A DNA stretch of 63,413 nucleotides, counting the filler, from Stramenopiles sp. TOSAG23-3 (Eukaryota), in assembly GCA_900128585.1 (NCBI GenBank). It is 6 parts of 6 records of this genome, joined end to end, with 100 filler letters (N's around TTAATTAATTAA, not from the genome) between each part and the next. Parts side by side here need not be neighbours in the genome. Positions count along the whole stretch, not along the records: positions 29,866 to 44,648 come from LT642544.1; 5 more parts are not named here. One strand, 5' to 3'. This document shows, piece by piece, positions 14,858 to 61,567 of the stretch. The notes under the pieces were generated by a model. It was given only the letters and a program-made list of their open reading frames with translations, was not told where the DNA came from and searched no databases. The stretch's first letter is position 1, and the number at the start of each line of letters is the position of its first letter. The position numbers were made by a program, and so were the translations under genes.

Positions 14858-14957
14858 NNNNNNNNNNNNNNNNNNNNNNNNNNNNNNNNNNNNNNNNNNN
14901 NTTAATTAATTAANNNNNNNNNNNNNNNNNNNNNNNNNNNNNNNNNNNNNNNNNNNN
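14858..14957. other. Artificial contig linker
   Basis: 44 N + TTAATTAATTAA (stops in all six frames) + 44 N. Confidence 0.97.
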
Positions 14958-20604: not shown

Positions 20605-20781
20605 CTTCTTCCTTCTTCCTTCTTCCTTCTTCCTTCTTCCTTCTTCCTTCTTCCTTCTTCCTTCTTCCTTCTTCCTTCTTCCTNNNNNNNNNNNNNNNNN
20701 NNNNNNNNNNNNNNNNNNNNNNNNNNNNNNNNNNNNNNNNNNNNNNNNNNNNNNNNNNNNNNNNNNNNNNNNNNNNNNNNN
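20605..20781. repeat. (TTCCTTC)n microsatellite running into a 98-N scaffold gap
   Basis: 7-mer repeat from about 20605 to 20683, then Ns at 20684-20781 without the linker motif. Confidence 0.9.
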
Positions 20782-26458: not shown

Positions 26459-29400
26459 TTAAAGGGTGACAGCGACCGTTCGCCGATGGGCATCTTTGTC
26501 CTCGCGAATATGGTGCCTCCGACTTTCGGTGGACATCGCGTAGTGGGGCGTGTTCGATTTATGCAAGCTAAACTCTTTCGGGGGAGACTCGTGCTGGGCT
26601 TTCATAGATTCTAGCAATTCTTTGACTTTGCTTAGGCTCTCAACGGCATCTTCCCTGGTTTTATCGTTTTTATGTTCGTCCAGCTGATCCCGTAATGACT
26701 CCATTTCAATGCGCAGCTCGTCATTGCGTTGTTTGAACTTTGTGACAGTGTTCACTTCGTGCTCCAACTGACGTTCAAGTGCCGATATTTCAACCATGTT
26801 CTTGCGGGTTATGTCCGCCGCTTTGCGAGTATAAAATTCATTCTCAAATTCTTTCAGTTCAAACTCCCTTCTCTCGATCATTGTCAGCCTCATCTCTATT
26901 TCGTGGGCCCGGTGTTCTTTATCCTTGATCTCTTGCTGCATCTCACTGATGCGTGCCATTTCCTCTTCAATTTTAATTTCTTTCGAGCGGACAGCCCCCT
27001 CTCGGCGGGCCAGATCTGCTTTGAAGCTCCTCACTCTGTTTCGTTCCTCTGATGTTTCTTCTTTTATTTTTTATACACGCCTCAAATTCTCCATTTCGAC
27101 CCTTTGCTGTTTGAGGTAACTGCTTTCGACAGCCATTCTAGTCTTGGACCGCTCAATATCGAGAAGCTGCTTTTGCTGAGACTCCAATTTTTCAAAGACT
27201 TCAATTTTTAGTGCTTGCAGTTCCTTTTCTTCACTTCTCCGTTGGGTGTCAGATTTAGCAAGATCCTGCCGCCAGTCGTGCAGCCGCTGCTGCTCTGCTG
27301 CAACTTCCATGGTTAATTTGTCCAGTTCATCCTCTACTTCCGTCTGCCGCTTTTCCCGCTTCACTATATCATCATGGATGCGTTGTATTCGGGTTTCCTT
27401 TTCATCAATATCGTGCATTTTCCGGGTCAGGTCTTCTTCCTTGTAACCTAGATCCAACGTGCGACTGTGGAGCTCTTCCGCATTCATCCTGTGCTCCTTT
27501 TGCGATCGTTTGTTTTCCTCTATTGTTTTCTTTACCGTTTCCAGCTCAACCACCAATTTCTTTGAATTCAAGGACGCTTTGCGCAGCAACGCCTGCCTAA
27601 TGACGCGTTGGATTGCTGTCGCGGAGTCCACCTTCATGGACTTAACATGCAAATCGTGCTCCTTGGCCCGCAGCCCTGCTTCTTTCGCAGAATTTTTCTC
27701 CTGGTCCTGCTGCAATTCAGCGTGTTGCTCTTGCAACGAATTCTCCAGCAGATTTAAGTGCGCCTCTTTCTTTTCAATGTCACTCTCTCTGTGCGACAAG
27801 TCGATGTCACGCTCCAGCGACAAATTTTCATGCTTTTTCAAGGCGACTTCGCGCCTCTCCAAATCCTCTTTGCGCGTACTCGCTTCTAACTTGTCCTTTT
27901 CCAGTAAATCCCTGTGCTTTTGCAGGGTCAACTCTTTGTCTTCTAAATCCCTGTTCCATCTTTGGATTTTTGCTTTTGTTTTGTCAACTTCGGTTTTGAT
28001 AGCATTTAAGTGCTCTAAATCATCGTCTAGTCGTTTCCGCTCAGACACAAAGTTCTCCACTGCTTGCTCGATGGCCGGCCATTGTAGATCTAGGGTGGCC
28101 ACGGACATGCGTCGAGCTTTCCTGGACTTTCTACCTGCGGACGCAAACAACATTTTGGACTGCATAGCCAATACGGCAATTTTTTGCTGCTCGTGAACTA
28201 GTTTAATTGCCTGTTTCTCTGCTTTTAACTTCTCATTTGAGTCCCTCATGGACTCAAGTTCCTCTGCCAACTGTATGTATTTCTCTTTCGAGAGCTTCAA
28301 ATCATCATGGAGCCCTTCTTGCCTTTGCTCGTGTCCCAACACTTGCTGTTCATGCTTGGCCTCCTTCTGCTTTATCTCCTTCACAATATTCGCCACTTCA
28401 GTTTGAGATTCCTTCAACTTCTCGGTAAGTTCATCGTAGTCGTGCAGTTTCGATTGTAACCTTTTGTTTTCCTTTCGAATATCGCCAATTTCCCCACTTT
28501 GCTCAAGGGCATCGTGTCTTAAATCTTCGATGGTCTTTTTCAATTCTTCGTTCTTCTGTTCCACGTCATCGATTTTACCTTCGTAGCGCTCTTGGATACT
28601 TTTTGAATGGTGATAAAATTCGTCCAAATCGCCACTGGATTCCATTTCCTTCTCTTTGTCAGCAAACCAGTTGGCAACGGGATTCGCCTGGGGTTGCTCC
28701 ATGCCCTTTGCTGGTTCTGTGTCGCCAACTTTCGCTAGCGCAATGACCAAGGGCACGGACAAGCGGCGGATATTCTGCCATCCATTTCTCTTCCTCGATT
28801 TTCTGTCCGCCCTCTCTTGCTTTCTTTTCTCGTAGACATGGCTCACCTGGTCAACAGCATTCTTGACCAACTTTTCGACTTCCGCGTTGCCTTCCGTCTC
28901 CTTCATTAGCACGTCCAGCACGTACTCCCATTGGTTATCGATATCATCGCCGGCAGATCCCCCCATAAATATGTCTTGCATTGATTCCAACCTTTTCTTT
29001 AGAAGCTTTCGCTCGGAATCCACGGCCTGAAACGCAACGTTGTCCAGAAGCTGTTTGTTTTCCTGCAAATCGTGGGTGAGCTGTTCCACCGTATGCTCCA
29101 GCTCTTCATCGTGCTCATGCAGCAGCTTTACTTCTCTAAGAAGTTCTTCGTCGCGCATTTTAACAGCCGACATTTCCTCTTTCAGCCGCATGCATTCTAA
29201 CTTGTACATTCTCAGGGCGTCCGCCTTCGAGCGCTTGCCGCCTTTGGACTTGTTTTGGATTTTTTTGCAAAGTTGTCCGAATTTTAAAGAGCTGACCGAC
29301 TCTGCTGTGTGCATAGGGGCCGGGGTCATTGCTATGGCGACGGCGGTGTAGCTATTCCCGCCCAAGGAATGCTTCAATATACGAGTCAATTTGCTGTTCC

Positions 29401-29764
29401 TGTAGGGGACGTGGGATTGGTCCCCCAATCCAAGTTTTGATATGACGTCCCCCAGGGCCAGCAAACTTTTGTTGATTGCCGTTCCTTCTTTCAGAGTTTT
29501 CCCCTTGGCTTTCGTGTTCTTTTGTCTTTCGGACCCCGCGAGATCGACCAACGTTAAAAAGCAATAACTCTTTTCCGGCTCATAGCCAGAGGAACCGAAA
29601 CTATGAAATTCTTCCTCCCCTCCGTTTTCTTGCATGTTGTTGAATTCTTTGATAATCTTATTTTCCCGTTCCACACGTTCCCTCGAGGCAACACTTTCTA
29701 TTACTATTCGAAAGACTGTATGGGATCGACTACTCCTAGCGTTCATCTGCGTGCTAGCAGTCTG
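26459..29764 (-). CDS. Kinesin (kinesin-7/CENP-E-like), 5'-truncated, long coiled-coil tail with an IQ-like motif and one in-frame TAA
   Basis: Switch I MNARSSRSH, switch II LVDLAGSER, HVPYRNSKLTRIL; AIQRVIRQALLR. ORFs 27071-29746 and 26459-27034 are in the same frame, separated only by the TAA at 27071-27073. Confidence 0.85.
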
Positions 29765-29765
29765 G

Positions 29766-29865
29766 NNNNNNNNNNNNNNNNNNNNNNNNNNNNNNNNNNN
29801 NNNNNNNNNTTAATTAATTAANNNNNNNNNNNNNNNNNNNNNNNNNNNNNNNNNNNNNNNNNNNN
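29766..29865. other. Artificial contig linker
   Basis: 44 N + TTAATTAATTAA + 44 N. Confidence 0.97.
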
Positions 29866-30212
29866 ATTAGTGCTATGAAATTGCTATTCTTCGCAGTCTT
29901 TTTGAATTCAATTATTTAAAAAATAATCAAGCCTGCTATTCGCATTATAAGAATAATGAGTGTACTGCTACCAAGGTATTTCAAAGTTGGCCATTGGGGA
30001 TCGGGTACCTTCTGGTACTGATGAAGAATTAACATTTGATGACCGGCAACAACTTTGAGCGCTGCCAGAGGTAAAAGCAGAAGTGCTAAAATAGTTACGA
30101 ATGACTTTTCGCGATAACAAAGGTAGTTTTGTTTGTTTCGTCTTTGTCATAAGTGATTCTTTAAATTACTTAGGAACGAGTTGCCGGTAATCGTACTCTA
30201 CTCAGGGAGACC

Positions 30213-33200
30213 ATGCTTACTTCAGCAAAGTCTTTGGCAAGGGCAGCGTTCTGCACCTTTTGCTTTTCTCTACTGGTAAGGAACGACTTCGTCAATGGAG
30301 GAGCGCCTGGTTTTGAACAGGTTGTCGGGGATGTGTCACAAATGCTAAAAAATCTGGCGGATGAGGAGTTGTGTGTTCCGGACATACAAGATTCCTACAG
30401 CAAAGCCACTTACGTGCGCAGTAACGAAGATGGGTCGAACATTTTGGACAAAATTGCGGAGGGGGTCAAAAAGACCGTACAAAGAATATTAATTGATCCC
30501 GTCGAAAGGATAAAGAGAAAGCTTGAAACGCAACTGTCTGCAGAAAATTTTGAGCAGCTGGAAAAAAGAGCAAAGGAACTGTACGACGACGGGCGATGGT
30601 CACCAGACTTCTGTCAAAACTTTCACGCCGAGGCCGAGCCTTACTCCGCCAGCTTCCTCCGCAAAGTGGACTTGACGAAAAGCTGTGCTGGTAACCCGTG
30701 GTATGCGAGAAATGAAACTCTTGAAGACACGCTCCTTTTCCAAGCTGCATTTGATCAAGGTGACATTGATGCAGAATTTAAGGAGAATATGAAGAGCGTA
30801 AAAACGCTGAAGTGGCAATATGTTGGTACCGCAACAGGATACCATCGCTTTTACCCAGCTGCACCTCGCAAGCCGTGGGGCTCGAGCACTGGTCGCTCGA
30901 TTCCTACCGAACAGAGAGACTGGGCAAATATTTTTTTCCTCCTCATTCTACCTGGATTAGTTTTCCACCTTTGGTTTTATAAAATAAAGCCTTACTATGG
31001 CATATGGTTCTTCGTCAAATCAAAGGATGGAAAGAGACTCGTGAAGCAACACTCTCGCGAAAACAGGGAGGGTCCCGACAAAGAAAAGAAAACGATCCGC
31101 AGCAGCCGCGTAGACGGCGCCGACGGGGAGATAGAAGAGAAAGACAGCACTGCCGATATGCATGATCTGGAGAAATATGCGTCACATGATACAACGATTG
31201 AAACAGGTCAGTTGTATAGCCGGCGCTTCATTGCTTACATTGCACTGGCACAGTTCTGGCTAACGTATGTTCCGTTTACGGTAACCCTGCTTGTTGGGTT
31301 CAAAACGACTCCTCAGTCCGACGGCGAGTTTGTTGATAAGTTTGGTGCAGTAAATTTTGAAACCATGGGACCGTTGTCTGGAGGACTGGTGGCAATTATT
31401 GTACTATGGGTTCTGGCAGTTATAGGACTAATATGCCAAACATTATTTATCTACAGCCAAGTGAACCAAATTGTTCGGGAACAGAATGATGACGATGGCG
31501 ACGAAGAGTCCAACGCCAAAAAAGGATTTGGGAGGAAATGTTCTTCGTATTTTTTCTTTGGTGTTGTAATTCCCTACATCTTGATGCATTTATCTTTATA
31601 TTTTCTAACTGATATCGATGCGTATGACCCGCGGACAAGGCCGTGGTACGTAAAAGCTGCGGGGGAGCCGAAGGACATGGTAATCATCATTGACTCCAGC
31701 GGATCTATGATGGAGCATGATCGAATGAAATATGCAAAAGCGGCAGCAAAAAAGGTGTTGACAACATTAAACGAGGATGACCGTGTGGCAGTAATTTCAT
31801 TCGCAACAGAAGCCCATTTCCCGGGTGTGGAATTTGTGACCGAAATAGAAGCTGCCAGAAAGAAAGGTGAGGGCGATCAATTTAACGATCGTGAAATTAG
31901 AACTCGTATGGAACGCCAGGAAAAAATTAGCCAAAACCCGTTTGATTTCACGTGTACTGACGGCCAGCACAAACGGATGGCTCCTGCAAATTACCATAAT
32001 AAGGAATTCTTTATGGATTTTATCGAGGGTATAAAACCAAGCGGGAGAACGAACTACATTGCTGCGTTCCGTGCAGCATTTGAATATTTAAATACTAGGC
32101 CCAATAATCATATTACACCGCGAAAGTCCGCTATTGTTTTCCTGACAGATGGTGCACCCACAGAACCTCACAAATCTGGAAAGAGAGAAGACTACGTTTT
32201 AAAGAATTTCAAAGAGGCGAAGAAGGTGCTGAACGAGTTGCGTGCGACAATGCAAAATCCACCTCATTTATTTACCTACGTGTTAGGCTCTGACATGAGT
32301 GAAGAGGAGCGCGTACAGCTGTCTGACATTACAAACATCCCCAAATTTATTGATGATGGTGACGTCGGAGATTTGATGGTGAGTATGGGAACTTACTATG
32401 AACAAGCGGACTACTTGTACGACTCCAAAACTGCGAAAACAGTTATGACCCTTCCCTATTATGATTATGATGGCCTAGGAGTTGTATTGACGGCAGCAGC
32501 GCCAATATTTCGCAACGTGGGGAATTTTAAAAATGTTACTGCAATTGCCTCCGAACAAGAACGATATGTTGGAGTTGTAGGAATAGATATGGCAGTAGCA
32601 GACATATTTAAGGATTTAGTGGATTCCACTCGGCATGGAAAGCGATCGTTTGCTTTCTTGATTGATTTCAGTGGTAGAGTTTTGTACCACCCCAACTTGC
32701 CGTCCCCGGAACAAAACACAGGTAATCAGCCTAAATTTGTGGACATTCAAGATTTATTGATCGTCCAATCGTGCTCTGGGGTGCATTCAATCTGGAACAA
32801 CACTGGTGGTGTTGATACCACAATGGTTAACTCGATTCGAACCGGTATGATGAGTGGGGGGTCCGGTTCACAGCGTTTAAAAATGACTATGTTGTACCCC
32901 AGAGGTGGCGCCTCGGAAGGAGCTAGTTCTGCCACATTCTGTGGGAAATTGCATTGGAAAAGAATCGATAATGCCGAATTTTCTCTTGGGTTCTTCCTCG
33001 AGGATGAAGACGCGACGCGGTATATTATTCCGGTGGATTCAGTAACACACAAAGAAACGACGAAGTACTTAGAAAGGGACACCGATTACTACCATCGCAT
33101 CGATGTCGTGCCATCTCCAGGCGCATATTTTGAGGACGGGTTCCCAGCCTGCGATGGCTTTTACGTTCAAGTTAACGCCTCGTTTAACGAAAGTTGCTGG

Positions 33201-36200
33201 AAGCTAGCCGCTTCGTCGTTTCAAAATTCTTATTATTATATACAGGAAGGCGACGAAGACAGAGGCAAGCCTTTAAAGGACCGGATAGAGAGAGTCAAAA
33301 CGTTGAATCGGTTGATAAACTCAGACGACACGAAATCAAAGCTTGACTTTGGAAAGATCGCCAGGCCTAGAGTTCGTGAAGACATATTTTTGACTCGAAA
33401 GGTCGAATCATGCTGGTTATCAAGAGTTGATCGTACTGTGGAAGGGACCAAGAGGGGGATAAACAGATACATTGGTACGGAAAATGGGGTTTTTAGGCAA
33501 TTGCCCTGTGCCCCACTCTCAAGATATTACGATCCTAGGAAACGACCGTGGTACATGCGCAGTTCGGAATACCCAAATTGGTATGCACTAAGCACTTACA
33601 TCGATGCGTTTTCCGGTAACCCGGTGACAACTTTGAGTAAGGGAATAATGCATAACCAAACTGTAAAGGCTGTTGCAGGGATAGATGTCAGCGTCGAGGC
33701 AATCGCTAAAATATTTCAAGTCGCTCTTCAACGTATTACTAACGAGGAATGGAAAACATTTTATGTTGTTGATCTTAGTGGTGCTTTGATTTATCATCCA
33801 GATATCGTTCAATTCAAAAGCTTGCTTAGCTCCACAGGATCGCCTCATTTGTCTAAACTTACAGGGGATAATGAGAAATGCCTGTCTGATCTGCTTGGCT
33901 GGGAAACAAGCATTTGCAAAGATTTATCATCGATGAAATACTTTGAGACGTCACAGTTAACTGGTGGGCTAGTGGGTTTGAGGGTGAGAGAAACACTAGT
34001 TGCCCAACGTATTCCAAATTCCAATGCTGTGTTGATAGTGAAAAAGAATAACATGGATTGTAAGATTCTGGAGGATAACACTATAACACAGGATGAAAAA
34101 TTTAGAAATTACTTTTGCAAAGACCCACCCTGCAAGGTTGTTGAAAAGCTGGATGCCTGCTCTAACAATGTCATTCCCTGGAAGAGCTGCTCCGGCGCAT
34201 GCCCCGTACCTTACGCAGGTGAGTACCAGACAATATACTATGATGGTGGCACTTCTCCGGAAGTAAAACAATTTATAGATAGTGGCAAATGGGGCAAAAC
34301 GGTACGATTTGACGTACACAAAGGTTCAGATGGCAAGGGACAGTCCCGGTACATATTTTATAAACCGAGCGATAATACTGATCAGTCAGGTAAGGTACGT
34401 TTCGCCTCGCCATATTCTTGTAATACTCAGAAAGGAGACTGCTTTGTGCAAGGTTCAACAGCACCCACGCGGCAAATAGTCCGCATGTCTGGGGTATGCC
34501 CGCAGCAGGTTCCCTCTGCAGGTAATTTTAAAGAAGAAATGAACCTTTGGTATTTCCCATGCATCAGCCTGTATTGGATAATAGCCATTTTCTTATTCGT
34601 TTCGGCCATATATTTCTTGGCTGTAAAGATTCGACGTGGAAACACAACGGTCAAGAAGCACATGTGGTGCTATTTTGCGCTGTTACTTTCTCCGGTTCTT
34701 TTGTGCTGCGCTGCCATTCAAATGTTTATGGTCGGCATAATATGGATTTCCCCTGTGGAGTACGACAAGTGGAAAGAAGAATTTTTTGATCCAAAAGGAA
34801 AACGGAGCGGTCGAACAGTCACTGAGCACTTTCTAGTTACTCCTAAATATTTTTGCGAATCTTTGTTGCATTTATTTTTAGTTCCAGCTTATATTTTGGG
34901 GACGGTCATAATTTCATCGAGCTCGATTTTACCCCCTCACTTTGCTAAGAATTACAGGGCATTTGTCAGAAACCTTGAGGCAAATGAAGAAATGGACCGG
35001 GAAGACCGGTGGATGAAATTTATCCCGGTGCATACGTATGTTGCTCTCAAAGATTGGTTCCTTTTTATATTATTCCCTGTTATTTTTGCATGGGTTGTCC
35101 TTGAGTTTGTTATGCTCTTGTCGTTGGCAATAATGGATTCCTACTTGTTTTCTTTGGCATGCGATGAACTTGGACCGGGGCAAGACCGTGCTGCGTTTGT
35201 CCTGAAGATGATCCGTTCCTTTCTTTCTGCCATTTATGGAGACGAAGAAGACCCCAAAAAGCATGTGTCTGAGCTGTTTTTGGTAATTCCAAAATATTTC
35301 GTTTTATCAATATTTGCTTTCGTATGGAAAACTTTTGAATTACCGATGTTTGCAGTGATACTTATTACAGGGCTACATGCAAAACGATGCTACCGAAAAA
35401 TGTTTGGGCTGTGGCAAGGCTACTACAGCTACTATGAACGATGGTACACTGTTGTTCCTACCCAATTTACGTGTCTAACGATTGATATAATAGCGCTATG
35501 CTTCGTCGTCTTGCCTTTAATATTGGGAGCATCGGTTGCTTTGCTAATATGGATACTAGTCGAAGTATTTTTAATGTGTCCTGTAATAGGCCTTTCTTAT
35601 GCTCCTGGTGGAGCATACTATTTAGATGATGTGTGGGAAAAAATAATGGAAACACCTGACGAACAAGAAACTCACGGCAAAGTTGAAAAACGCTCTATCA
35701 CCATTGAGATGAACAAGATGGAGGGTAAAACAAGCGAAGATGCAGTAGAAGATGTTAACAAAGGCGAAAATGAAGTGGATGATGCTTGGCTCGGTGTGAT
35801 TTTGCGAAAGGATTTTGCTAATAATGCCGTTGTAAGAGAAATTTACGCGAAGTGCAATAAGCATGAAACGGAAACCATAAAGAGGCTGAAGGATTTGAAT
35901 AAGTTCGTATTAGTCAGTGGCGACATTTGGAAGTCCTACAAAAAGTGGTTTTGCAATATTTTCTACAAGGCTACCATGGTTATCCCGTATTACTTCTACT
36001 TGGCCCTAAAACAGAACGCTGTGTTTTTTTTGAATTGTCTTCAATTCATTGTTGCAATGCCTATGTTCGTGTGCATCCTTTTTCCTTCTCCGGGAGAGTT
36101 GGTTTTTTTTGGGGCGTTTGGTACGGACCTTACTGTAGCATTGTGCTGGCAAGATTTAACTGCATATTGGAAAACAGATAAGACGGGTGAAGAAAAAGAG

Positions 36201-39200
36201 AAAAAAGGAAGATTACCTATTGTCACAGTATTGCACTATTTTCTGGAAACGTTTTTTTTGCAATGGATATGGATGCCTGTCGAACTTTGCTTATTTCTCA
36301 TATTAATGTTTACTTCATTTTTGCACGTGGAGTACCACCGCTGTCTGTTTCAACTAAGAAACAAAGCTCTTGGAAGATATGATAAAATGTACTTCACGGT
36401 CCCGCTTAGCTTTTTTCGGGGGGCATTCATTTTCAGTTACCGAATCTCCAGAACCGTTTTACTCTTTATTTTCACTTGTTTTTTATGTGTTTACTTTTTG
36501 TTAGAGTCTGTGCTTTTCCTGGTTTCTTGGTTCTTTGTTTTCTTGGTATATTGTTGTACTCTTGGGCTTATAGAAATCGAACACCAAATTTACCAGAACG
36601 AACTGATGGCTGGTATCAACTTCTTATACTCGGGAAAGAAGGAAGCGGGGGGGAAGAAAGTGGTGAAATGGAAAGAAAGAAAAGTCGGTCCTAAATCGAA
36701 CGGAAAAGATGCTGATGTCATTAAGAGGCAAGGGTCCTCCTTTCAATTACGACGGCAGTACACAGTAGTGCTGAGAACTTGGTTTGAGCGCGTAACAGAT
36801 CCACGGCTGTATTATGTGGTCCCCGTTTTCTTTATTAGAAGTTTGGCGTGTCTTATTTTTACTCTCGTTTTACTGCCATTTGTTGTTATCTCCGCTACGG
36901 TAAATTATACGGTTACATTTGTAGTCTACTGCGGGCCTGAGCGGAAGAATCTTGATGAGCGCCGTAAACAGCTGTGGGAAAAAGAAGAAATTACTCATAA
37001 CATTATGAACATAATAGAGATCCACCTGTTTTCGTCGTATGAATTTGTGCCAAAAACCTTGCTTTTTTTAATTTCATTGCCATTGCAGATAGTCCTCTTT
37101 GCAATCATATGCATTTCCCCCCCATGCTTAGCTCTGAAATGTATAAGAAGATTATGTGATCGAAACACGTCATATGCAGAGAAGGCGTACAAAACTATAC
37201 CTTCGACTTTCCTGGATGTGTGCAAATGGTGGCTTGCTTTGTTTCTAAAGTATGATCTACCTGTACTGTTCGTCCTTGTATGCTTAATTTTGTTGGTACT
37301 ATTTGCCGTTGTGTTTGTGCTGGAGCTAAGCATGTATCTGTTAGTGTGCATTACGGTCGTACAGGCAGTTGAGTGCAAAGACGAACTAGAAGAGTTGCTC
37401 GGTGAAACGGGCGGTAAAAAAGCGATAAATGTCCGAAGAATGTCAGCCCACTATTTATCGCAGGATATGCACGCTTCAGTTGTTGAGATTAATCCCGTCC
37501 CAGCCGTTGTTACCAACAGCTTTGTGGGCGTGAAGGAAGACAAAGAAGCGGCGGAGGAAAAAGACGCATATTCGAACAACGCTTCGCTGGAACGACTTAT
37601 CCAGCTGGAAGTGTTGCCGTATGAACAAACGGTTTTGGTATATGACAAATGTGATAAAGATGAAGAAAAGGCAAGGCAAAGACTAATGAAGCTGGTCCAG
37701 TACGACATGTTAATTATGAAATTACGCAAGCTGAGTCCTGGACTTTATGATCGCGAAAAAATTCTGTGCGTCTTGGAGCAATGTGGTTACAATGAAAGGA
37801 AAGCTAGGGACGAGATTGTAATGAATACACTCACCATATGGCTTGTCAGGGCCAGGAATTTTCTTTCGATAGTCCCTAAACATTTGTCAAAAGCCATTCT
37901 GTTTTACATAAGGCAAACAATATGCTTGCCCTTTTATATCATTTCGCTCGCGATGGTACTACTTACTTCTATCTTGCTTGTCTTCACTGTGCAGTTATGG
38001 ACCAAGCTTATGGATAAAAAGCGGCCTCTGTCTGATCGAATAATGCCGTTTTATCGCCCAACGTTTGAGAATTTCTATTTGTCAATACTTTTCTATTTAT
38101 TCCTTCCGATGCAAGCAGTCATGTCATTGATTATTTTGGGTTGTGGGTTTGAGGCAAAACGTTGGTGGATAGAACTATTCTTCAACCCAGAAAAAGTTGC
38201 TTGGAAATTGCGCATATTTTACACGACATGGAAATATTTCATTCTGACGATGAGAAAAACCGGGGCTGAGGCCGGGGACTTTGCTGATGCAGCAGGGGAA
38301 TTTGTCGCCACGAAAATTAAGAAAATGGTAGGTGGTGCCGGGGGTATTGTCGTGGCTCTTCTTAAATTGTTCATTGCACTCTGTGCAATTGCTATTGCTG
38401 TGCCTATTGGGGCAGTGGAATTGTGTTTCTTTATAATCATCTGCATTTTTCGTGTCGAATACTATGATTGTATCTATGAAATTAAACATGGGGATACGCT
38501 TTGGGATGCGCATTGGGTTTTTCGAGCTTTGTGGGCAATCCCCCCTCACTTTTTTATCACCCTTGTTTTTCTTGCATACTTCCCTTTCCTTGTGTTAATG
38601 TTTGCGGTAATCTCGGGGACAGGAGTTCAACTCAAACAATGCTTAAAAGATCTAGGCTATTGGTATGACGAGGATAAGTTAGCATTGACAGACTTAGAGC
38701 TTACCGAGATTTTTGAAATGGAAGTAGTGGACAAGTTCCTTCGTTGCCCTTCAATGGAATCCAATGACGAGAAAAGGGATGATGTTTGTGAATTATTGTC
38801 CCTATATAAGTACCATATTATTCAGGAGAGGGATAGAAACAATAAAAATGCAACCAATTATTCCTTGTCTGATAAAGAGTTTGATCGTATCCGAGCGCGT
38901 TTAAAGCCAGTTTTGCTTAATGCTTGCATTAAGAAAATCAATGCGATCGAAGGTAGCCTTAAGAAAGTTTTACAAAACAGGAAAGAAGAGCGACGATATG
39001 CTCGATATTGGACTGCTATTCCTAAGAATTTTATCGAAATGTGCGCAATCATTTTGAAGTTGTTGCTAAATTTTACAATTGTGACCACTAAATATTCATT
39101 CAAGGGTCTTTTGTTCTTTTTTAAATTGCTAATTTTGGACATAATAATCATGATACCTTTGACAGTTTCGTACACGGCAATAATGCTTTCCATGTTTTTA

Positions 39201-41282
39201 GTGGTTTTCTTTTCTGTTCAAAATACCGTATGTATTAAGCAAATAAAGGAAGCCTGGAAAAGGAATAAATCAGCAGCTATTGCTGAAAAAAATACTGCCA
39301 AAGTTGCAGAGGCTGTAGAAGCGGGCAAAGGAAAGGTTGAAAAGTCTACAGAAATAAAGCAAACCGATACCACGAAAGATAGCACGGGTGGTATTTACAT
39401 AGAAATCTTCAGAATAATGGTTAAGCATTTTCTGACTGCACTTATGTTTTGGGTCTACTTTCCATTTTGGTTATTAGGTATAATATTCACTACGGTGTGT
39501 CCACCGTGTAGCTACTCGCGCCAGATGTGGTCAGACTTGTTGTGTAATAAGAAATTGTCTAGGGAGGAAAGAATTTGGGGTGTTGTGGGTAAGTATGCTT
39601 TGAAAACGTTGGGGTACTGTGCGGAGAAAGTTGGCCATTGCTTAACTACTTGCTTTAAATGTGGCGCAACATCTCTTCGCATGCTGTCTTATTTTGTAGC
39701 CCTTTTAGTCACATTTCCCTTGCTTACTCTGTGGAGTGTTACTGTTACGGTCACTGTAGTGGCAGGCATAGTATTTTTGATACCTTGCCTGCAAGTATTA
39801 TTTAGAGGGCCTCCAAAACATGCAGCAGCCGCATTAGAAAAAAGAGACAAAGAATTTGTGAACTGGAAGAAAGTCGGCTGGATTTGTAGTGTAACAATGA
39901 GATGTTTCTTCTACAGCATCTTCCTATGGTTGCTTGGTGGCCCATGCTTGTTTTATTTGCTGTTACTGTACTGTTTTATTGGTGCAAGGTCGAAAGCAGA
40001 AAAGGATGAACTTAGCTACATTACGTCGATCGTATTTGCAAAGCACGCCAGCTATTGCAAAAGGAAATTTGAGGATCGTGCAGACAAACCATCCATAGAA
40101 TCTTACAGTATGGAATTCAAAAACTGTAAAGAAGATACAGTTATAACAGCATACGAAACGGCACTCAAGCGTGGAAATGAAAAGCTTATCACAACATTTT
40201 TGAAGGACGGAGGAATCGCGTTTCAGTTTGAAATTTTGGACGGGGTGTGGCTTCTGTACCCCCTGTCTCTGCGATTACTATTTCGACACTTAAAGTCTGC
40301 CTTGCTTGGTTTGTTTGGCTTGTGGCGCCTTTGTATAAAGGCTTTAATTGCGATGTTTTTTGCGTCGTTGTGGTTAGGTTTAGGTGTTCCGTGTATCCTT
40401 GTGGTTGTTCCGACTCCCTTTCGTAGCGATATGTTTCTCGAATTTAAAACTAATGGTGGCCATGTGAAGAACCCGAAAAACTTGCTTTTAACTTGGAAAT
40501 ATTTCTGTTATGCATTGCCTTGGATTATTTTGTTCCCGGTGCAGTATATAATTGCGTTTCCAATAGTTTCTTGTTTCCAAAACAAAGAGGAAAAGGACCT
40601 TAGGGTTGAGGAGTACAAAAAGGTGGGTTCACCGAAGAAGTATTGGCTGTATGCAATGTATGCGGCCAACCCCATCTTTATTCGCATTGCGCGCACTAAA
40701 GTGGGCCCGGGGGTCTACAAAGTTTTCTTTTTGTGCTCGAAGCTTCTCGGTGCTGTAGTTCTTTTGCCCTTTGTTATAGCTCTTCTCTTGTTGGAAGGGC
40801 TCATGCTGGTTACATGCGCAATCAGCGGGATATTGGTCCTGGATTTCCACATTATTAAGGCAATACGACAGTTCTACCAGGAGGAAAAAGATTATTTTCT
40901 ATTGGGACTAGTCATTCCCCAGTATTTTCTCCTCGCGGTCATATTTATAATGTGGGCACCATGTTTCTGGCTTTTGAGGGGATTGGTAATTCTTTTTGGT
41001 GGGAAAGAACGCCGCAGGCAACTGAAGGAGGACCTTCTCAATCCTGAAGGAGACCATTTTTATCTTGTGTGGCCTGTTTTGTTCCACTTTTTTTTTACAT
41101 TTACTTCGCTGTTGCGAATCCCATGCGCCTTGGCTCTTCTTCCGTGTGCTTGGATAACTCGTGGTGCCGCACACATCGTATTTTTTCCGTGGCGTCAGCG
41201 TGGTGCTAAATATTTTCACGTGTGGCCAAAGAAGTTGGTAGTTTTTTTTCGGGACTCAAAACCGTTTCGAATGGCTTTATGA
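30213..41282 (+). CDS. Giant membrane protein: alpha2delta/CACHD1-like VWA_N-dCache-VWA-dCache ectodomain followed by a long repetitive polytopic region
   Basis: WQYVGTATGYHRFYPA, YDPRTRPWY..PKDMVIIIDSSGSM (MIDAS DxSxS, then GRTNY and FLTDG), PYYD..G.V.T..VVGID, AFLID..G.VLYHP, second YYDPRKRPWY..YIDA..VAGID. Dozens of hydrophobic helices follow from about 34570. Confidence 0.85.
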   Translation: MLTSAKSLARAAFCTFCFSLLVRNDFVNGGAPGFEQVVGDVSQMLKNLADEELCVPDIQDSYSKATYVRSNEDGSNILDKIAEGVKKTVQRILIDPVERIKRKLETQLSAENFEQLEKRAKELYDDGRWSPDFCQNFHAEAEPYSASFLRKVDLTKSCAGNPWYARNETLEDTLLFQAAFDQGDIDAEFKENMKSVKTLKWQYVGTATGYHRFYPAAPRKPWGSSTGRSIPTEQRDWANIFFLLILPGLVFHLWFYKIKPYYGIWFFVKSKDGKRLVKQHSRENREGPDKEKKTIRSSRVDGADGEIEEKDSTADMHDLEKYASHDTTIETGQLYSRRFIAYIALAQFWLTYVPFTVTLLVGFKTTPQSDGEFVDKFGAVNFETMGPLSGGLVAIIVLWVLAVIGLICQTLFIYSQVNQIVREQNDDDGDEESNAKKGFGRKCSSYFFFGVVIPYILMHLSLYFLTDIDAYDPRTRPWYVKAAGEPKDMVIIIDSSGSMMEHDRMKYAKAAAKKVLTTLNEDDRVAVISFATEAHFPGVEFVTEIEAARKKGEGDQFNDREIRTRMERQEKISQNPFDFTCTDGQHKRMAPANYHNKEFFMDFIEGIKPSGRTNYIAAFRAAFEYLNTRPNNHITPRKSAIVFLTDGAPTEPHKSGKREDYVLKNFKEAKKVLNELRATMQNPPHLFTYVLGSDMSEEERVQLSDITNIPKFIDDGDVGDLMVSMGTYYEQADYLYDSKTAKTVMTLPYYDYDGLGVVLTAAAPIFRNVGNFKNVTAIASEQERYVGVVGIDMAVADIFKDLVDSTRHGKRSFAFLIDFSGRVLYHPNLPSPEQNTGNQPKFVDIQDLLIVQSCSGVHSIWNNTGGVDTTMVNSIRTGMMSGGSGSQRLKMTMLYPRGGASEGASSATFCGKLHWKRIDNAEFSLGFFLEDEDATRYIIPVDSVTHKETTKYLERDTDYYHRIDVVPSPGAYFEDGFPACDGFYVQVNASFNESCWKLAASSFQNSYYYIQEGDEDRGKPLKDRIERVKTLNRLINSDDTKSKLDFGKIARPRVREDIFLTRKVESCWLSRVDRTVEGTKRGINRYIGTENGVFRQLPCAPLSRYYDPRKRPWYMRSSEYPNWYALSTYIDAFSGNPVTTLSKGIMHNQTVKAVAGIDVSVEAIAKIFQVALQRITNEEWKTFYVVDLSGALIYHPDIVQFKSLLSSTGSPHLSKLTGDNEKCLSDLLGWETSICKDLSSMKYFETSQLTGGLVGLRVRETLVAQRIPNSNAVLIVKKNNMDCKILEDNTITQDEKFRNYFCKDPPCKVVEKLDACSNNVIPWKSCSGACPVPYAGEYQTIYYDGGTSPEVKQFIDSGKWGKTVRFDVHKGSDGKGQSRYIFYKPSDNTDQSGKVRFASPYSCNTQKGDCFVQGSTAPTRQIVRMSGVCPQQVPSAGNFKEEMNLWYFPCISLYWIIAIFLFVSAIYFLAVKIRRGNTTVKKHMWCYFALLLSPVLLCCAAIQMFMVGIIWISPVEYDKWKEEFFDPKGKRSGRTVTEHFLVTPKYFCESLLHLFLVPAYILGTVIISSSSILPPHFAKNYRAFVRNLEANEEMDREDRWMKFIPVHTYVALKDWFLFILFPVIFAWVVLEFVMLLSLAIMDSYLFSLACDELGPGQDRAAFVLKMIRSFLSAIYGDEEDPKKHVSELFLVIPKYFVLSIFAFVWKTFELPMFAVILITGLHAKRCYRKMFGLWQGYYSYYERWYTVVPTQFTCLTIDIIALCFVVLPLILGASVALLIWILVEVFLMCPVIGLSYAPGGAYYLDDVWEKIMETPDEQETHGKVEKRSITIEMNKMEGKTSEDAVEDVNKGENEVDDAWLGVILRKDFANNAVVREIYAKCNKHETETIKRLKDLNKFVLVSGDIWKSYKKWFCNIFYKATMVIPYYFYLALKQNAVFFLNCLQFIVAMPMFVCILFPSPGELVFFGAFGTDLTVALCWQDLTAYWKTDKTGEEKEKKGRLPIVTVLHYFLETFFLQWIWMPVELCLFLILMFTSFLHVEYHRCLFQLRNKALGRYDKMYFTVPLSFFRGAFIFSYRISRTVLLFIFTCFLCVYFLLESVLFLVSWFFVFLVYCCTLGLIEIEHQIYQNELMAGINFLYSGKKEAGGKKVVKWKERKVGPKSNGKDADVIKRQGSSFQLRRQYTVVLRTWFERVTDPRLYYVVPVFFIRSLACLIFTLVLLPFVVISATVNYTVTFVVYCGPERKNLDERRKQLWEKEEITHNIMNIIEIHLFSSYEFVPKTLLFLISLPLQIVLFAIICISPPCLALKCIRRLCDRNTSYAEKAYKTIPSTFLDVCKWWLALFLKYDLPVLFVLVCLILLVLFAVVFVLELSMYLLVCITVVQAVECKDELEELLGETGGKKAINVRRMSAHYLSQDMHASVVEINPVPAVVTNSFVGVKEDKEAAEEKDAYSNNASLERLIQLEVLPYEQTVLVYDKCDKDEEKARQRLMKLVQYDMLIMKLRKLSPGLYDREKILCVLEQCGYNERKARDEIVMNTLTIWLVRARNFLSIVPKHLSKAILFYIRQTICLPFYIISLAMVLLTSILLVFTVQLWTKLMDKKRPLSDRIMPFYRPTFENFYLSILFYLFLPMQAVMSLIILGCGFEAKRWWIELFFNPEKVAWKLRIFYTTWKYFILTMRKTGAEAGDFADAAGEFVATKIKKMVGGAGGIVVALLKLFIALCAIAIAVPIGAVELCFFIIICIFRVEYYDCIYEIKHGDTLWDAHWVFRALWAIPPHFFITLVFLAYFPFLVLMFAVISGTGVQLKQCLKDLGYWYDEDKLALTDLELTEIFEMEVVDKFLRCPSMESNDEKRDDVCELLSLYKYHIIQERDRNNKNATNYSLSDKEFDRIRARLKPVLLNACIKKINAIEGSLKKVLQNRKEERRYARYWTAIPKNFIEMCAIILKLLLNFTIVTTKYSFKGLLFFFKLLILDIIIMIPLTVSYTAIMLSMFLVVFFSVQNTVCIKQIKEAWKRNKSAAIAEKNTAKVAEAVEAGKGKVEKSTEIKQTDTTKDSTGGIYIEIFRIMVKHFLTALMFWVYFPFWLLGIIFTTVCPPCSYSRQMWSDLLCNKKLSREERIWGVVGKYALKTLGYCAEKVGHCLTTCFKCGATSLRMLSYFVALLVTFPLLTLWSVTVTVTVVAGIVFLIPCLQVLFRGPPKHAAAALEKRDKEFVNWKKVGWICSVTMRCFFYSIFLWLLGGPCLFYLLLLYCFIGARSKAEKDELSYITSIVFAKHASYCKRKFEDRADKPSIESYSMEFKNCKEDTVITAYETALKRGNEKLITTFLKDGGIAFQFEILDGVWLLYPLSLRLLFRHLKSALLGLFGLWRLCIKALIAMFFASLWLGLGVPCILVVVPTPFRSDMFLEFKTNGGHVKNPKNLLLTWKYFCYALPWIILFPVQYIIAFPIVSCFQNKEEKDLRVEEYKKVGSPKKYWLYAMYAANPIFIRIARTKVGPGVYKVFFLCSKLLGAVVLLPFVIALLLLEGLMLVTCAISGILVLDFHIIKAIRQFYQEEKDYFLLGLVIPQYFLLAVIFIMWAPCFWLLRGLVILFGGKERRRQLKEDLLNPEGDHFYLVWPVLFHFFFTFTSLLRIPCALALLPCAWITRGAAHIVFFPWRQRGAKYFHVWPKKLVVFFRDSKPFRMAL

Positions 41283-41307
41283 TGTTGAGAATGGCCTTGG
41301 ATACAAT

Positions 41308-42597
41308 ATGCGCTGGCACATAACTTGGCAAGAAATTTCCAAATTGTGTTGGAATGTTCTGCTGTTCCCGATTGCTGTGAATCTTGCTTTCGTGGTTCTC
41401 TTGTACGACCTTGGTACAGTTATCTTTTGCCTCCAAGCACATATATTCTACGCGTTGGGTGGTTTCTTCGTCGCACAATCGGGGAGAATTTGGCCGATCA
41501 AGCTGGCAATACTTGCAACTCATATGACGCTTCTAATAATTTTCTATGTGTACGTCGTGCAGGTGCCACTCGCGTTGACGGATACGCGTGGTTTATTCTG
41601 GACTCGTGGTATGTTTAACGCATGCTCGAAAGAAGCCTTGGCGGATGGAAGTTGTGAAGACTATATTAACCATGCCGAGTATGATGTGAGTGCGAGCTAT
41701 CGTCTTGCCCATGATATTGCAGCTTTATTCTTCGCTTGTCCTGCTACAGTGGCGCTAATTCTCAATTTTGTTCACTTTTACCAACTTTATTTTAAGGAAA
41801 GACCTTTTATTATCGCACAATGGCGAAAGATAACACAACTGATTGGAAAACCTGACGTTAAAAAACTTACGGAGGGGAAATTGAGGACGATTAATTTGAA
41901 AAAACGAAAAATCAACGACGCAGACTGCTTCACTATTGCGCAAATTTTAAGTAAAGCAAAAAGGATAAATGAATTAATTATTTCGGAGAACCATATTGGG
42001 CCGCATGGTTGCTTGTTACTAGAGTCTGCTAGCGTAAATCTAGACAATTGTGAAACCTTCAATTTTGATGACAATCACTTTGGAGATATGGGGATCGTCT
42101 TTTTGAGCAGAATGTTGTTCAAATCGGTAGCACTCGTAGAACTAAATCTCTCCCACAACAGTATATCTAGCAATGGATTTCTGGAAGTGTTGCAAGGACT
42201 GTCGCCAGACATGACCACGTTTGAAAGTTTGATTATGCAAGGAAACAATATTGATGATACTGGCATGGAGTATTTTGCTGACGCAATGTTTGAAGGCAAT
42301 AAGACATGCCTTGAATTTCTTAGAACAATTGATTTTAGTGGAAACAAGATAACGGGCAAATCCTTTGATTCAATAAGCAACGCTTTGGGGAAAATGCGAC
42401 ATCTGGAGCATATTTATTTGAATGATAATAACATTTCAGACGACAGTTTTGAGAAACTGGAATTGGTTTTGTTGGGGTGCGGATCACTGATATCATTAGA
42501 CATGTCACACAATAACATTTCATATGAGCGTGCAAAGCAATTCTACAAAAAATGGGAAGACGCCGGAAAAGACAGAGCTAGTCTTCACATGGAATAA
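41308..42597 (+). CDS. TM segments + RNI-like leucine-rich repeats; probably the C-terminus of the giant protein
   Basis: LRRs (ELIISENHIGPHG, FNFDDNHFGDMG, LNLSHNSISSNG, LIMQGNNIDDTG, IDFSGNKITG, IYLNDNNISD). This frame is open back to the T8 run at 41242-41249; deleting one T fuses it to the upstream ORF (4127 aa). Confidence 0.8.
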   Translation: MRWHITWQEISKLCWNVLLFPIAVNLAFVVLLYDLGTVIFCLQAHIFYALGGFFVAQSGRIWPIKLAILATHMTLLIIFYVYVVQVPLALTDTRGLFWTRGMFNACSKEALADGSCEDYINHAEYDVSASYRLAHDIAALFFACPATVALILNFVHFYQLYFKERPFIIAQWRKITQLIGKPDVKKLTEGKLRTINLKKRKINDADCFTIAQILSKAKRINELIISENHIGPHGCLLLESASVNLDNCETFNFDDNHFGDMGIVFLSRMLFKSVALVELNLSHNSISSNGFLEVLQGLSPDMTTFESLIMQGNNIDDTGMEYFADAMFEGNKTCLEFLRTIDFSGNKITGKSFDSISNALGKMRHLEHIYLNDNNISDDSFEKLELVLLGCGSLISLDMSHNNISYERAKQFYKKWEDAGKDRASLHME

Positions 42598-43149
42598 TTC
42601 TGAATAATTAACCCTAATATTTTATAGATTAGATACTAATAAAAACTATAGACTAGTTACATCATCTTATTTTCTTCTCTACAGGTAATAATACAGGTAG
42701 GTAAGGAAAAATACCCGTACAGGTACCAGGTACCGTACCACCTATAAATGTACACTTATTACATTACTCATCCTCGCAACTGCTGGTGTAAACGGTATCC
42801 CCCAACGAGAATATCGGTGCCTACCCGTATCAGGTTTCCTTCCCGGTACGGTAGTCGTTCTTCTTTTCTTCTCTATAAAAAAAAATTTTTTTTTTAAATA
42901 ATAATATAATGCATAGAGTCGTCGTCGTCTGCTGAAAAAAAACACAACAAAAGTAAATACTAGTATAAAACCAAAGTAGTAAATAATGAACACCGGTAAG
43001 CATCGCACTCCCCCCCCCTTCTCTCTCAGATCTTTTGTCGCAAATTGAGAGCCTACACCAGAAGTGATATTCCTTTTAACGTTTTTCACACTAGAAAAGC
43101 GAAGAGATTTTTAGGAAACAGATTGTTGCAATCTTGTCGCTATCAAAAC

Positions 43150-44370
43150 ATGCTCCTCCTTTACCATGTTTGTTTGGTGTTCGTTTTTCTAACGTTTAGC
43201 TGCCACGCCCGTGTCTATTTTACGGAAACTTTTGATGATGATGGGGTAGTTGGGGAAGGGGTTTATGAAAAGTGGCAAACAGCAGAAGGATCTTCTGGTG
43301 AGAATATGGGGGACTGGGGGATAGTATCTTCATCTATACCATTCCGGTTTGATATTGAGGTGGAATCTTCGAAGTTGTATACGTTTCCGGGAGAAAGTGT
43401 GCACGAACAACACTTGGACCGTGGTTTGAAGACACTAAACAATTTTTCCTATTACCGTTTGAGTAGCATGTTGACGACTCCGTTTTATAGCAAAGGGACA
43501 ACTTTATACTTGCAATTTTCATTGAGGCTTGATCAAATTGATGGACTTGACTGTGGCGGGGCTTACGTTAAACTTTTCCCAGGTGGACTTAAACCAAAAG
43601 AGCTAGACGGTAATACTCCTTATGCATTTTTGTTTGGTCCAGACTTATGCGGTTCAACATCTCAAGGGACAAAAATAATTATTGGGTATGATTCAACACA
43701 GCAACCAGGCATGAATGTGAATCGTAGAAATGTTCGTCTTCAAAAGAAGCTGCATTGTGAAATGGACAAAGCGACCCACTTGTACACTCTGATCGTGCGC
43801 CCCGACAACACCTACGAATACCACATCGACGGGTTGATGTCCGACCATGGGACCCTTGGCGAACATTTTGAAGCGCTTCTGCCTCCAAAGCTGGTCTCAA
43901 ATTCGTCTGCTAAGAAACCTAAAAACTGGGTAGATGACCCTTTCACACCCGAAGCTTTGGATCCAACCTTGAAAGAAGCAAACAACCAACCAAAGTATAT
44001 TCCCGACCCAACAAAGCAAAAACCAGAAAAATGGAATGCTGAAGAAGACGGAGTATGGGAGCCCCCGTTGATTCCAAACCCCCGATGGAGGGCGGGCTCA
44101 GAGCCTCGTATGGTAAGAAACCCGAAGTACAAAGGGCCTTGGAAAGCTGGCCTTGTAAGAAATCCGGAGTACTCTGAGGAACGAGCAAAGTCATTATACC
44201 AGCAATGTAATCCATGCGAGCATATAGGGTTTGAATTGTGGCAAGTGGATGCGGGGACTGTTTTTGACGATATTTTGATAACGGACTCGGAAGATGAGCT
44301 AATGGAAGAAACGCGAAGAGTGCAAGAAAAACTTGCGTGGGAGAGATATACTCTGTCGGGCAAAAAGTGA
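43150..44370 (+). CDS. Calreticulin/calnexin-family lectin chaperone, soluble, lacking the acidic tail
   Basis: Signal peptide from ATG 43150; VYFTETF, LDCGGAYVKL, FGPDLCG, THLYTLIVRPDNTYE, P-domain repeats KPKNWVD, KPEKWNAEEDGVWEPP, NPKYKGPW; IGFELWQV..GTVFDDILITD. Confidence 0.88.
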   Translation: MLLLYHVCLVFVFLTFSCHARVYFTETFDDDGVVGEGVYEKWQTAEGSSGENMGDWGIVSSSIPFRFDIEVESSKLYTFPGESVHEQHLDRGLKTLNNFSYYRLSSMLTTPFYSKGTTLYLQFSLRLDQIDGLDCGGAYVKLFPGGLKPKELDGNTPYAFLFGPDLCGSTSQGTKIIIGYDSTQQPGMNVNRRNVRLQKKLHCEMDKATHLYTLIVRPDNTYEYHIDGLMSDHGTLGEHFEALLPPKLVSNSSAKKPKNWVDDPFTPEALDPTLKEANNQPKYIPDPTKQKPEKWNAEEDGVWEPPLIPNPRWRAGSEPRMVRNPKYKGPWKAGLVRNPEYSEERAKSLYQQCNPCEHIGFELWQVDAGTVFDDILITDSEDELMEETRRVQEKLAWERYTLSGKK

Positions 44371-44648
44371 TGTGTAAAAGAGTTTCCATTAATTACAACT
44401 CATTTCTTGCCTTAATAATTGGTAATATTGGAGGAAATTAAGGGAACAATATTGGGGATTGATTTGACCTAGTGTATTACCACCCTTCTTCACGTTAAAG
44501 TAAAATTTATATTGTTGATTGCACGATTAGCTGATGACAGGGGGGGGGGGGGGGGGGGGGGGGAAAAATTTTTTTTTTTTTATTAATCTCTAATAACGCA
44601 GCAGAGGAAGGAAAAGAAGACATGCTGTAAAGCTCTAATAGTAAAAGA

Positions 44649-44748
44649 NNNNNNNNNNNNNNNNNNNNNNNNNNNNNNNNNNNNNNNNNNNNTTAATTAA
44701 TTAANNNNNNNNNNNNNNNNNNNNNNNNNNNNNNNNNNNNNNNNNNNN
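44649..44748. other. Artificial contig linker
   Basis: 44 N + TTAATTAATTAA + 44 N. Confidence 0.97.
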
Positions 44749-59520: not shown

Positions 59521-59620
59521 NNNNNNNNNNNNNNNNNNNNNNNNNNNNNNNNNNNNNNNNNNNNTTAATTAATTAANNNNNNNNNNNNNNNNNNNNNNNN
59601 NNNNNNNNNNNNNNNNNNNN
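59521..59620. other. Artificial contig linker
   Basis: 44 N + TTAATTAATTAA + 44 N. Confidence 0.97.
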
Positions 59621-61467: not shown

Positions 61468-61567
61468 NNNNNNNNNNNNNNNNNNNNNNNNNNNNNNNNN
61501 NNNNNNNNNNNTTAATTAATTAANNNNNNNNNNNNNNNNNNNNNNNNNNNNNNNNNNNNNNNNNNNN
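61468..61567. other. Artificial contig linker
   Basis: 44 N + TTAATTAATTAA + 44 N. Confidence 0.97.

Follow-up and report, generated by a model that had tools for sequence, protein, structure and literature searches.

In the parts of Gumerov et al. (2022; PMC8915833) available to us, the amino-acid-binding motif of dCache domains is given as YxxxxRxWY (Y121, R126 and W128, together with Y144 and D173, in PctA numbering), which in eukaryotes is split by insertion of a VWA domain and through which alpha2delta-1 binds its ligands. The motif is kept in the first dCache of alpha2delta and in the second dCache of CACHD1, the second dCache of alpha2delta being devoid of it. The same parts place dCache_1AA proteins in SAR (stramenopiles, alveolates and Rhizaria) and VWA-dCache proteins across eukaryotes, and put 'double-AA_motif' proteins of non-vertebrate eukaryotes at or near the root of the tree. 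They mention no fusion to a polytopic membrane region or to leucine-rich repeats (LRRs); Dataset S3 of that work might list proteins of the kind described below. As far as the accessible portion of PMC4202318 goes, alpha2delta proper occurs in animals only, and in the accessible literature CACHD1 is described as a transmembrane protein interacting with Wnt receptors. We analyzed a 63,413-nucleotide stretch of joined contigs from Stramenopiles sp. TOSAG23-3 (GCA_900128585.1), termed the window, in which positions 30213–42597 are a single real, expressed and intron-free gene for a predicted multi-pass plasma-membrane protein with a head of this type. At a probability of roughly 0.45, we read its product as most likely a self-contained chemosensory or adhesive surface receptor.

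The locus comprises an open reading frame (ORF) at 30213–41282 on the + strand, encoding 3,689 amino acids (aa), and a second ORF in the +1 frame at 41308–42597 on the + strand, encoding 429 aa; both lie exactly where a first-pass annotation of this DNA had put them, with the features it had described. The frame of the second ORF stays open back to 41242, where a run of eight T residues (T8) begins, and the two frames overlap just at 41242–41282. Dropping one T of this run yields a joined product of 4,127 aa, to which all residue numbers refer. Its features are as follows, MIDAS denoting the metal-ion-dependent adhesion site.

30213–42597, + strand: whole gene, 4,127 aa with the T7 reading, no intron (ORFs, relatives, RNA contigs)
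30213–30296, + strand: probable signal peptide, aa 1–28, with its hydrophobic peak at aa 12–28
30762–30863, + strand: VWA_N, aa 184–217 (Pfam E 2.2e-6; 28.8 bits, below the 34.7 cut-off)
30867–31610, + strand: family-specific insert, aa 219–466, four hydrophobic helices with charged loops (alignment, hydropathy)
31623–31649, + strand: amino-terminal half of motif 1, YDPRTRPWY, aa 471–479 (Y471, R476, W478, Y479)
31674–32402, + strand: VWA with the MIDAS residues D494-x-S496-x-S498, T613 and D646 (Pfam VWA_2 4.3e-13; VWA 1.2e-7, from aa 488)
32430–32753, + strand: carboxy-terminal half of the first dCache, where Y749 and D792 complete motif 1
33360–34202, + strand: second dCache, aa ~1050–1330, with motif 2 complete (Pfam dCache_1 1.7e-15, best stretch 1105–1201)
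34539–41772, + strand: polytopic region, aa 1443–3853, ~2,400 aa, spanning the T8 break (hydropathy, collinear alignment of three lineages)
41242–41249, + strand: T8 homopolymer interrupting the frame, one T shorter in relatives and RNA contigs (sequence, frames)
41593–41664, + strand: Cys-containing loop LFWxRGMFxxC...DGSCED before the last hydrophobic helix (three-lineage alignment)
41875–42594, + strand: ribonuclease-inhibitor-type LRR, about 8 repeats by reading the translation (Pfam LRR_6 1.7e-15, LRR_1 1.4e-9)

The protein starts with a basic and then a hydrophobic stretch in all three lineages in which we found it. Searching its amino-terminal 1,440 residues against the PDB with phmmer returned alpha2delta-1 (E 9e-27), with VWA aligned to VWA, CACHD1 (8s7c_A, E 3.9e-24 over aa 1050–1330) and the dCache of the bacterial amino-acid chemoreceptor PctA (5ltx_A, E 5.9e-8). 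VWA_N aligns to residues 180–214 of alpha2delta-1 and scores above the Pfam cut-off in two relatives, P0024 and P0005, introduced below. Pfam dCache_1 matches the window protein in two stretches. The residues that complete the first motif on the far side of the VWA also have counterparts in alpha2delta-1: Y749 corresponds to the tyrosine in 'VYLD' and D792 to the aspartate in 'GVDVS'. The second motif is YDPRKRPWY at aa 1106–1114, comprising Y1106, R1111, W1113 and Y1114 together with Y1129 and D1158. The pattern DxSxS...T...D defines a MIDAS, and its five residues are invariant in the three-lineage alignment, as are all 12 residues of the two amino-acid motifs; the intact MIDAS and the YDPRxRPWY in both dCache units, both of them claims of the first-pass annotation, thus stand. 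Judged from the shared order VWA_N, VWA, dCache_1 and the significant similarity to solved alpha2delta and CACHD1 members, the head is a true homologue of their ectodomain, with a VWA inserted in one dCache and a second dCache behind it. Because both motif copies are complete, it is a double-motif member of the family.

Between VWA_N and the first YDPRxRPWY lies a segment that had been overlooked, with hydrophobic helices at about aa 237–253, 345–361, 392–408 and 446–462. In alpha2delta-1, 'ARYYPASP' (residue 214) is followed ten residues on by IDLYDVRRRPWY (residue 224); the equivalent positions of the window protein are aa 218 and aa 467, which amounts to an insert of ~250 aa where alpha2delta-1 has about 10 residues. 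The insert is well conserved, with many residues invariant across the three lineages. From alignment and hydropathy, this conserved segment splitting the first dCache is a new feature. We infer that an even number of passes would bring the chain back outside, leaving the head pinned to the membrane at a point inside its first dCache.

Behind the head, the dense hydrophobic region recognized at first pass was borne out by hydropathy, its size having to be raised from about 2,200 aa to the ~2,400 aa listed above. The consensus hydropathy of the three lineages shows 44 peaks, corresponding to one signal peptide, four helices of the insert and 39 segments within aa 1457–3853, with soluble loops of 60–180 aa separating groups of helices. 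A recurrent motif consists of an aromatic residue, then (V/I)P(K)x(F), often with (L/F)PxQ about 14 residues on. Counted as [VIWTM]P..[FLYM] against 1,000 shuffles, it occurred 20 times in P0007, a near relative of the window protein (shuffle mean 6.4 ± 2.3), and 20 times in P0005 (mean 7.4), with 0 of 1000 shuffles reaching the count in either case; P0024 had 11 occurrences (mean 6.3), a count reached by 51 of 1000 shuffles. Aligning 24 unit windows, picked by eye, against each other with hhalign gave 22 of 270 pairs with at least 50% probability and five with at least 90%, compared to 0 of 270 at or above 50% for the reversed controls (maximum 47.7%). Self-BLASTP of the membrane region yielded nothing at E ≤ 1, which indicates that the repeats are old and divergent and places the weight on the motif counts and on hhalign with its reversed controls. 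A self-trained repeat hidden Markov model was circular and was discarded as evidence. By these measures, the region is built of divergent repeats with a '(V/I)PKxF' motif.

Searches for relatives of this region led back to the family itself. No Pfam family matched it at E ≤ 1, and no PDB sequence matched aa 1440–3676 at E ≤ 1. A HMMER search with aa 1480–2679 against 1.84 billion cluster representatives retrieved 10 matches, all of them fragments of 55–138 aa from near relatives; P0005 and P0024 are missing from this result, indicating that the library under-represents the family. Querying the ESM Atlas with aa 1440–3480 and aa 1900–2400 gave no usable match. The idea that the cytosolic loops are UBA-like was dropped, as a PDB phmmer search with aa 2440–2545 at E ≤ 10 gave four unrelated matches, the best at E 0.45, and Pfam gave nothing at E ≤ 1. 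At the level of sequence, the membrane region, about 60% of the protein, is without detectable relatives beyond the family, and it may thus represent a new membrane fold built from repeats.

The composition of the array allows a different reading, in which it would itself be an ion channel, a transporter or a mechanosensor, with Piezo-like curved repeats or a chain of buried charges, and the head would serve it as an integral module for gating or regulation, not as an independent receptor. In line with this, ~39 hydrophobic segments are arranged in repeats, a Glu lies within the core of several long hydrophobic helices (E1784, E2024 and E2098 being invariant across the three aligned lineages), and mid-helix Pro and Gln recur. 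In addition, a membrane domain followed by a carboxy-terminal cytosolic LRR is the layout of LRRC8, and animal counterparts of the head act on channels, as alpha2delta does on voltage-gated calcium (CaV) channels according to the sources at hand. However, Ion_trans, Piezo and pannexin gave no Pfam match at E ≤ 1, and a regular-expression scan detected neither an S4-like run nor a pore-loop or selectivity-filter pattern in the membrane region of any of the three family proteins, extending the absence of S4 and pore-loop motifs noted at first pass; these results, like the lack of a PDB match, weigh only lightly against a channel. A VIA-align fold search using a low-confidence model of aa 1430–2400 returned unrelated long-helix or coiled-coil matches exclusively (best Z 6.6), which are uninformative as to the fold. 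We regard a channel, transporter or mechanosensor as an unlikely identity for the array.

For the receptor that we favor, the carboxy-terminal part would supply the intracellular side. The Cys-containing loop, with F3795, W3796, R3798, G3799, M3800, F3801, C3804, D3811, G3812, C3814, E3815 and D3816 invariant, is probably extracellular, and a basic stretch lies between the last hydrophobic helix and the LRR. In phmmer searches against the PDB, the LRR matched a designed LRR (4r5d_A, 7.7e-15) and ribonuclease inhibitor (1dfj_I, 3.1e-13; 1z7x_W, 6.2e-11), which together with Pfam LRR_6 substantiates the earlier description as ribonuclease-inhibitor-like; other closest solved sequences were LRRC34, DRC5, radial spoke protein 15 and 5irm_A. 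LRRs of the ribonuclease inhibitor type are known from cytosolic proteins, and the domain is probably cytosolic here, which would agree with an odd number of passes behind the head. PF27087, precomputed on the ENA protein P0003, was considered as a name for the membrane region and rejected: an unrelated protein with LRRs has it too, and a link to the LRR is therefore probable.

The integrity of the gene across T8 was assessed with relatives and public sequencing runs. P0003 (2,320 aa, 99% identical) is continuous through the T-run, where it reads ...KKLVVFFGTQNRF..., and P0007 and P0010 likewise read ...KKLVVFFGTQNRF... at this place. The latter two are 4,127 aa each, lie on separate metagenome contigs (53 kb and 24 kb), are unbroken across T8 and, compared with the joined window reading (X standing at the break), show 44 and 51 differences over 4,127 positions, respectively. 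The junction stretch was present in 20 public runs from 14 studies, seven of them RNA libraries that include PolyA and oligo-dT preparations. Four public runs were compared with window positions 29900–42900 as assembled contigs rather than reads. The RNA contigs of runs X4 (1,976 nt, 40175–42093) and X15 (373 nt, 40910–41283, PolyA library), from two metatranscriptome studies, each lack a letter at 41242. The RNA contigs over the gene contain no credible splice joint, in agreement with the intronless gene annotated at first pass; two DNA joints in run X7, with sides of 21–23 letters, were treated as spurious. RNA cover is patchy over the 5' two-thirds of the gene, and an RNA library can contain DNA.

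The X4 contig also omits two letters at 40334, a place that X15 covers without this gap, and has 60 unmatched letters at its 40175 end. The gap probably represents a strain variant or a chimeric contig end.

These data bear on the possibility that the locus is an artefact or a dead gene, that is, two separate genes, a chimera of the assembly or a pseudogene cut short at T8 in this strain. The window does carry the frameshift and consists of concatenated contigs, its differences to a metagenome variant show an excess of residue-changing ones (see below), and the possible source runs X1 (1.00), X2 and X3 (0.98) contain nearly all of the junction-stretch words sampled, so T8 may be real in that sample; run X1, when compared with the gene, gave no cover over it. 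Against this, the linkers flanking the contig lie outside the gene (29766–29865 and 44649–44748), five independent assemblies from three lineages have the same collinear product, RNA contigs from two studies continue with one T fewer, and several window alleles recur in RNA contigs and are hence real polymorphisms. We consider an artefact or a dead gene very unlikely. An error in the homopolymer or a private allele is the most likely cause of the frameshift, which is at most a broken allele in this one strain, and the one gene across the T8 slip that the first-pass annotation had proposed is upheld by full-length relatives and RNA contigs. The points on which that annotation had let its proposal hang came out in its favor: RNA contigs leave the ORF unsplit, no breakpoint falls inside the gene, and neither sequence searches nor the literature produced a described full-length family with this architecture, which had gone unrecognized at first pass as well. 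The anatomy is well backed; the functional side of that annotation, an all-in-one ligand sensor with LRR output, a receptor or channel class and a part in prey recognition, stays conjectural, and nothing channel-like came to light.

The family was delineated by word-indexed searches. With aa 1440–2440 as query, a single cluster was obtained, represented by P0003, and the head (aa 460–1440) retrieved two more, P0004 and P0005; apart from these three clusters, the searches gave one weak LRR match, P0051, and nothing else. P0004 (2,680 aa, 47% identical) is a truncated form of the 4,326-aa P0024. This NCBI-derived sequence (L001, 2803–10842) ends at 2,680 aa with a divergent tail where its cluster mate P0024 continues, which looks like a frameshift or an assembly break in a draft contig. 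P0005 (4,018 aa, 40% identical) shares its cluster with the EukProt entry Stramenopile-MAST_4_protein_1263, in which the first ~3,056 aa are unrelated. Both P0024 (34% and 25% identity in two blocks) and P0005 (36%, 24% and 27% in three blocks) are collinear with the window protein from the signal peptide through the LRR, and overall identity between lineages amounts to 33–37%. A profile search, a metagenome scan and an exhaustive HMMER search revealed no fourth lineage, the three loci of the metagenome scan all belonging to the two known sister lineages. All known members come from marine samples, with one of the three lineages labelled as MAST-4 stramenopile. The 6,964-aa EukProt model P0036 was set aside, as its first ~3,056 aa are unmatched to the window and it looks like a merged gene model. 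In P0005, one of the loops in the membrane region includes an EF-hand-like loop, DKDGDGKVTMETL, at aa 3158–3193 (Pfam EF-hand_6 E 0.0026, under the cut-off), which the window protein does not have.

Comparison with the metagenome run X7 showed that 26 of the 30 listed differences, all within 30310–39737, change a residue and four are silent; four more differences lie in the ORF beyond the 30 listed. Such an excess may stem from weak constraint or, for a surface receptor, from diversifying selection. A high share of residue-changing differences is also a trait of surface recognition proteins, and may be taken in favor of a membrane scaffold or adhesin without a signalling role, whose MIDAS/VWA head would anchor a surface structure or prey and whose LRR would tie it to the cytoskeleton or axoneme. 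VWA and MIDAS are classic adhesion modules, and several of the closest solved LRRs, namely LRRC34, DRC5 and radial spoke protein 15, are axoneme-associated. One relative is labelled MAST-4, a group described in the accessible literature as key uncultured bacterivores and bacterivorous flagellates. Yet both amino-acid pockets are strictly conserved, which points to small-ligand binding beyond adhesion alone, and the axonemal matches may just mirror the abundance of ribonuclease-inhibitor-type LRRs in axoneme structures. A purely structural role is doubtful in our view.

Under the receptor reading, free amino acids or amino-acid-like groups would bind both dCache pockets, and the MIDAS would bind an acidic group of a partner or of a loop of the protein itself. 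The four-helix insert and the carboxy-terminal array would hold the head against the membrane, such that a change arising in the head would be relayed to the helical array, which in turn would present its cytosolic loops and the LRR to intracellular partners. A more far-reaching proposal, which we deem improbable, sees in the protein a new class of self-contained giant sensory transducer, with an ancestral-type alpha2delta head of two amino-acid pockets and a MIDAS, wired covalently via an intra-domain four-helix anchor to a hitherto unseen ~39-helix repeat array that would conduct ions or a long-distance conformational signal, and with the LRR as cytosolic output; alpha2delta modules would then have been receptors first and channel accessories later.

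Several points weigh against the receptor. The ~39 hydrophobic segments are not obviously needed by one and are more typical of channels, transporters or scaffolds. AlphaFold2 modelling of aa 160–1359 from a three-row alignment was unusable (mean predicted local distance difference test, pLDDT, 32.6). For aa 1430–2400, an 11-row alignment gave an all-helical model with a mean pLDDT of 56.2 and a predicted TM-score of 0.37, in which values of 74–93 were reached just at about aa 1540–1630. With both models poor, the fold, the true number of membrane passes and the side of the LRR are tentative. The nearly complete junction words in X1–X3 count here as well, and the 26 of 30 residue-changing differences are as compatible with weak constraint as with diversifying selection.

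The window consists of separate contigs, each about 14.8 kb long, that are strung together by [N44]TTAATTAATTAA[N44] linkers at 14858–14957, 29766–29865, 44649–44748, 59521–59620 and 61468–61567, with an additional N98 at 20684–20781; the TTAATTAATTAA spacer between the paired 44-N blocks contains stops in all six frames. Since the linkers join separate contigs, genes across a linker are not genomic neighbours. The contig carrying the gene spans 29866–44648, with no linker within the gene, so the upstream kinesin ORF is not a true neighbour, and the sole true one is a calreticulin-like ORF at 43045–44370. ORFs elsewhere in the window, for kinesin, mitochondrial carrier, calreticulin and Kelch proteins, are clearly of eukaryotic type. 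The start of the kinesin ORF (27071–29746, − strand) matches just the carboxy-terminal half of the motor profile (positions 195–327); the ORF is either cut by the contig end or linker or intron-bearing. On a different contig from the gene, 7378–9339 (+ strand) encodes a CNG/HCN-type channel with Ion_trans and a cyclic-nucleotide-binding domain. A single 1,033-aa ORF at 22972–26073 (+ strand) has an unusual mix of Peptidase_M64, SPRING1 and a carboxy-terminal glycosyltransferase family 18 domain, and a (TTCC)n simple repeat at ~20644–20683 runs into the 98-N gap.

The alpha2delta proteins, targets of gabapentinoid drugs, have an unclear ancestral role. In the window protein, a head of this kind with strict conservation of both amino-acid pockets and of the MIDAS is attached to a very large membrane domain in place of a single anchor, and the gene is expressed in the open ocean by MAST-4-related organisms. 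If the head truly senses amino acids, the protein would be a candidate for the molecule with which very small grazers in the sea perceive dissolved nutrients or prey. It would also offer a natural experiment in the coupling of an alpha2delta-type module to membrane helices.

Among known systems, alpha2delta-1 (PDB 9vlg_A, 7mix_D) shares the succession of VWA_N, YxxxxRxWY, a VWA with MIDAS and the carboxy-terminal half of the first dCache. In contrast to alpha2delta-1, which has a single anchor and no LRR, the window protein carries the four-helix insert, the motif in both dCaches, ~39 further hydrophobic segments and an LRR; with four helices inside the head and ~39 after it in place of a single anchor, the whole protein is not an alpha2delta. 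CACHD1 (8s7c_A) has the same head architecture, and the second dCache bears the motif in both proteins, whereas CACHD1 spans the membrane once, has a degenerate MIDAS where that of the window protein is intact, and is not followed by a multi-pass region and LRR. Voltage-gated-like channels differ by their S1–S4 sensor and pore loop, for which Pfam at E ≤ 1 and the pattern scan found no counterpart in the three proteins. LRRC8, the volume-regulated anion channel (VRAC), likewise has a membrane domain and then a carboxy-terminal cytosolic LRR, but the window protein has no pannexin-like Pfam match, its LRR is of the ribonuclease inhibitor type (LRR_6), and its size and repeat array are unrelated. 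Piezo offers an analogy as a very large membrane protein with helices in repeats and amphipathic leader segments; at the sequence level, the window protein shows no Pfam or PDB match to it and no Piezo-type carboxy-terminal pore module. The 'double-AA_motif' dCache_1AA proteins, as outlined in the available parts of PMC8915833, resemble the head in having two dCache_1 domains, a VWA in the first and the amino-acid motif in both.

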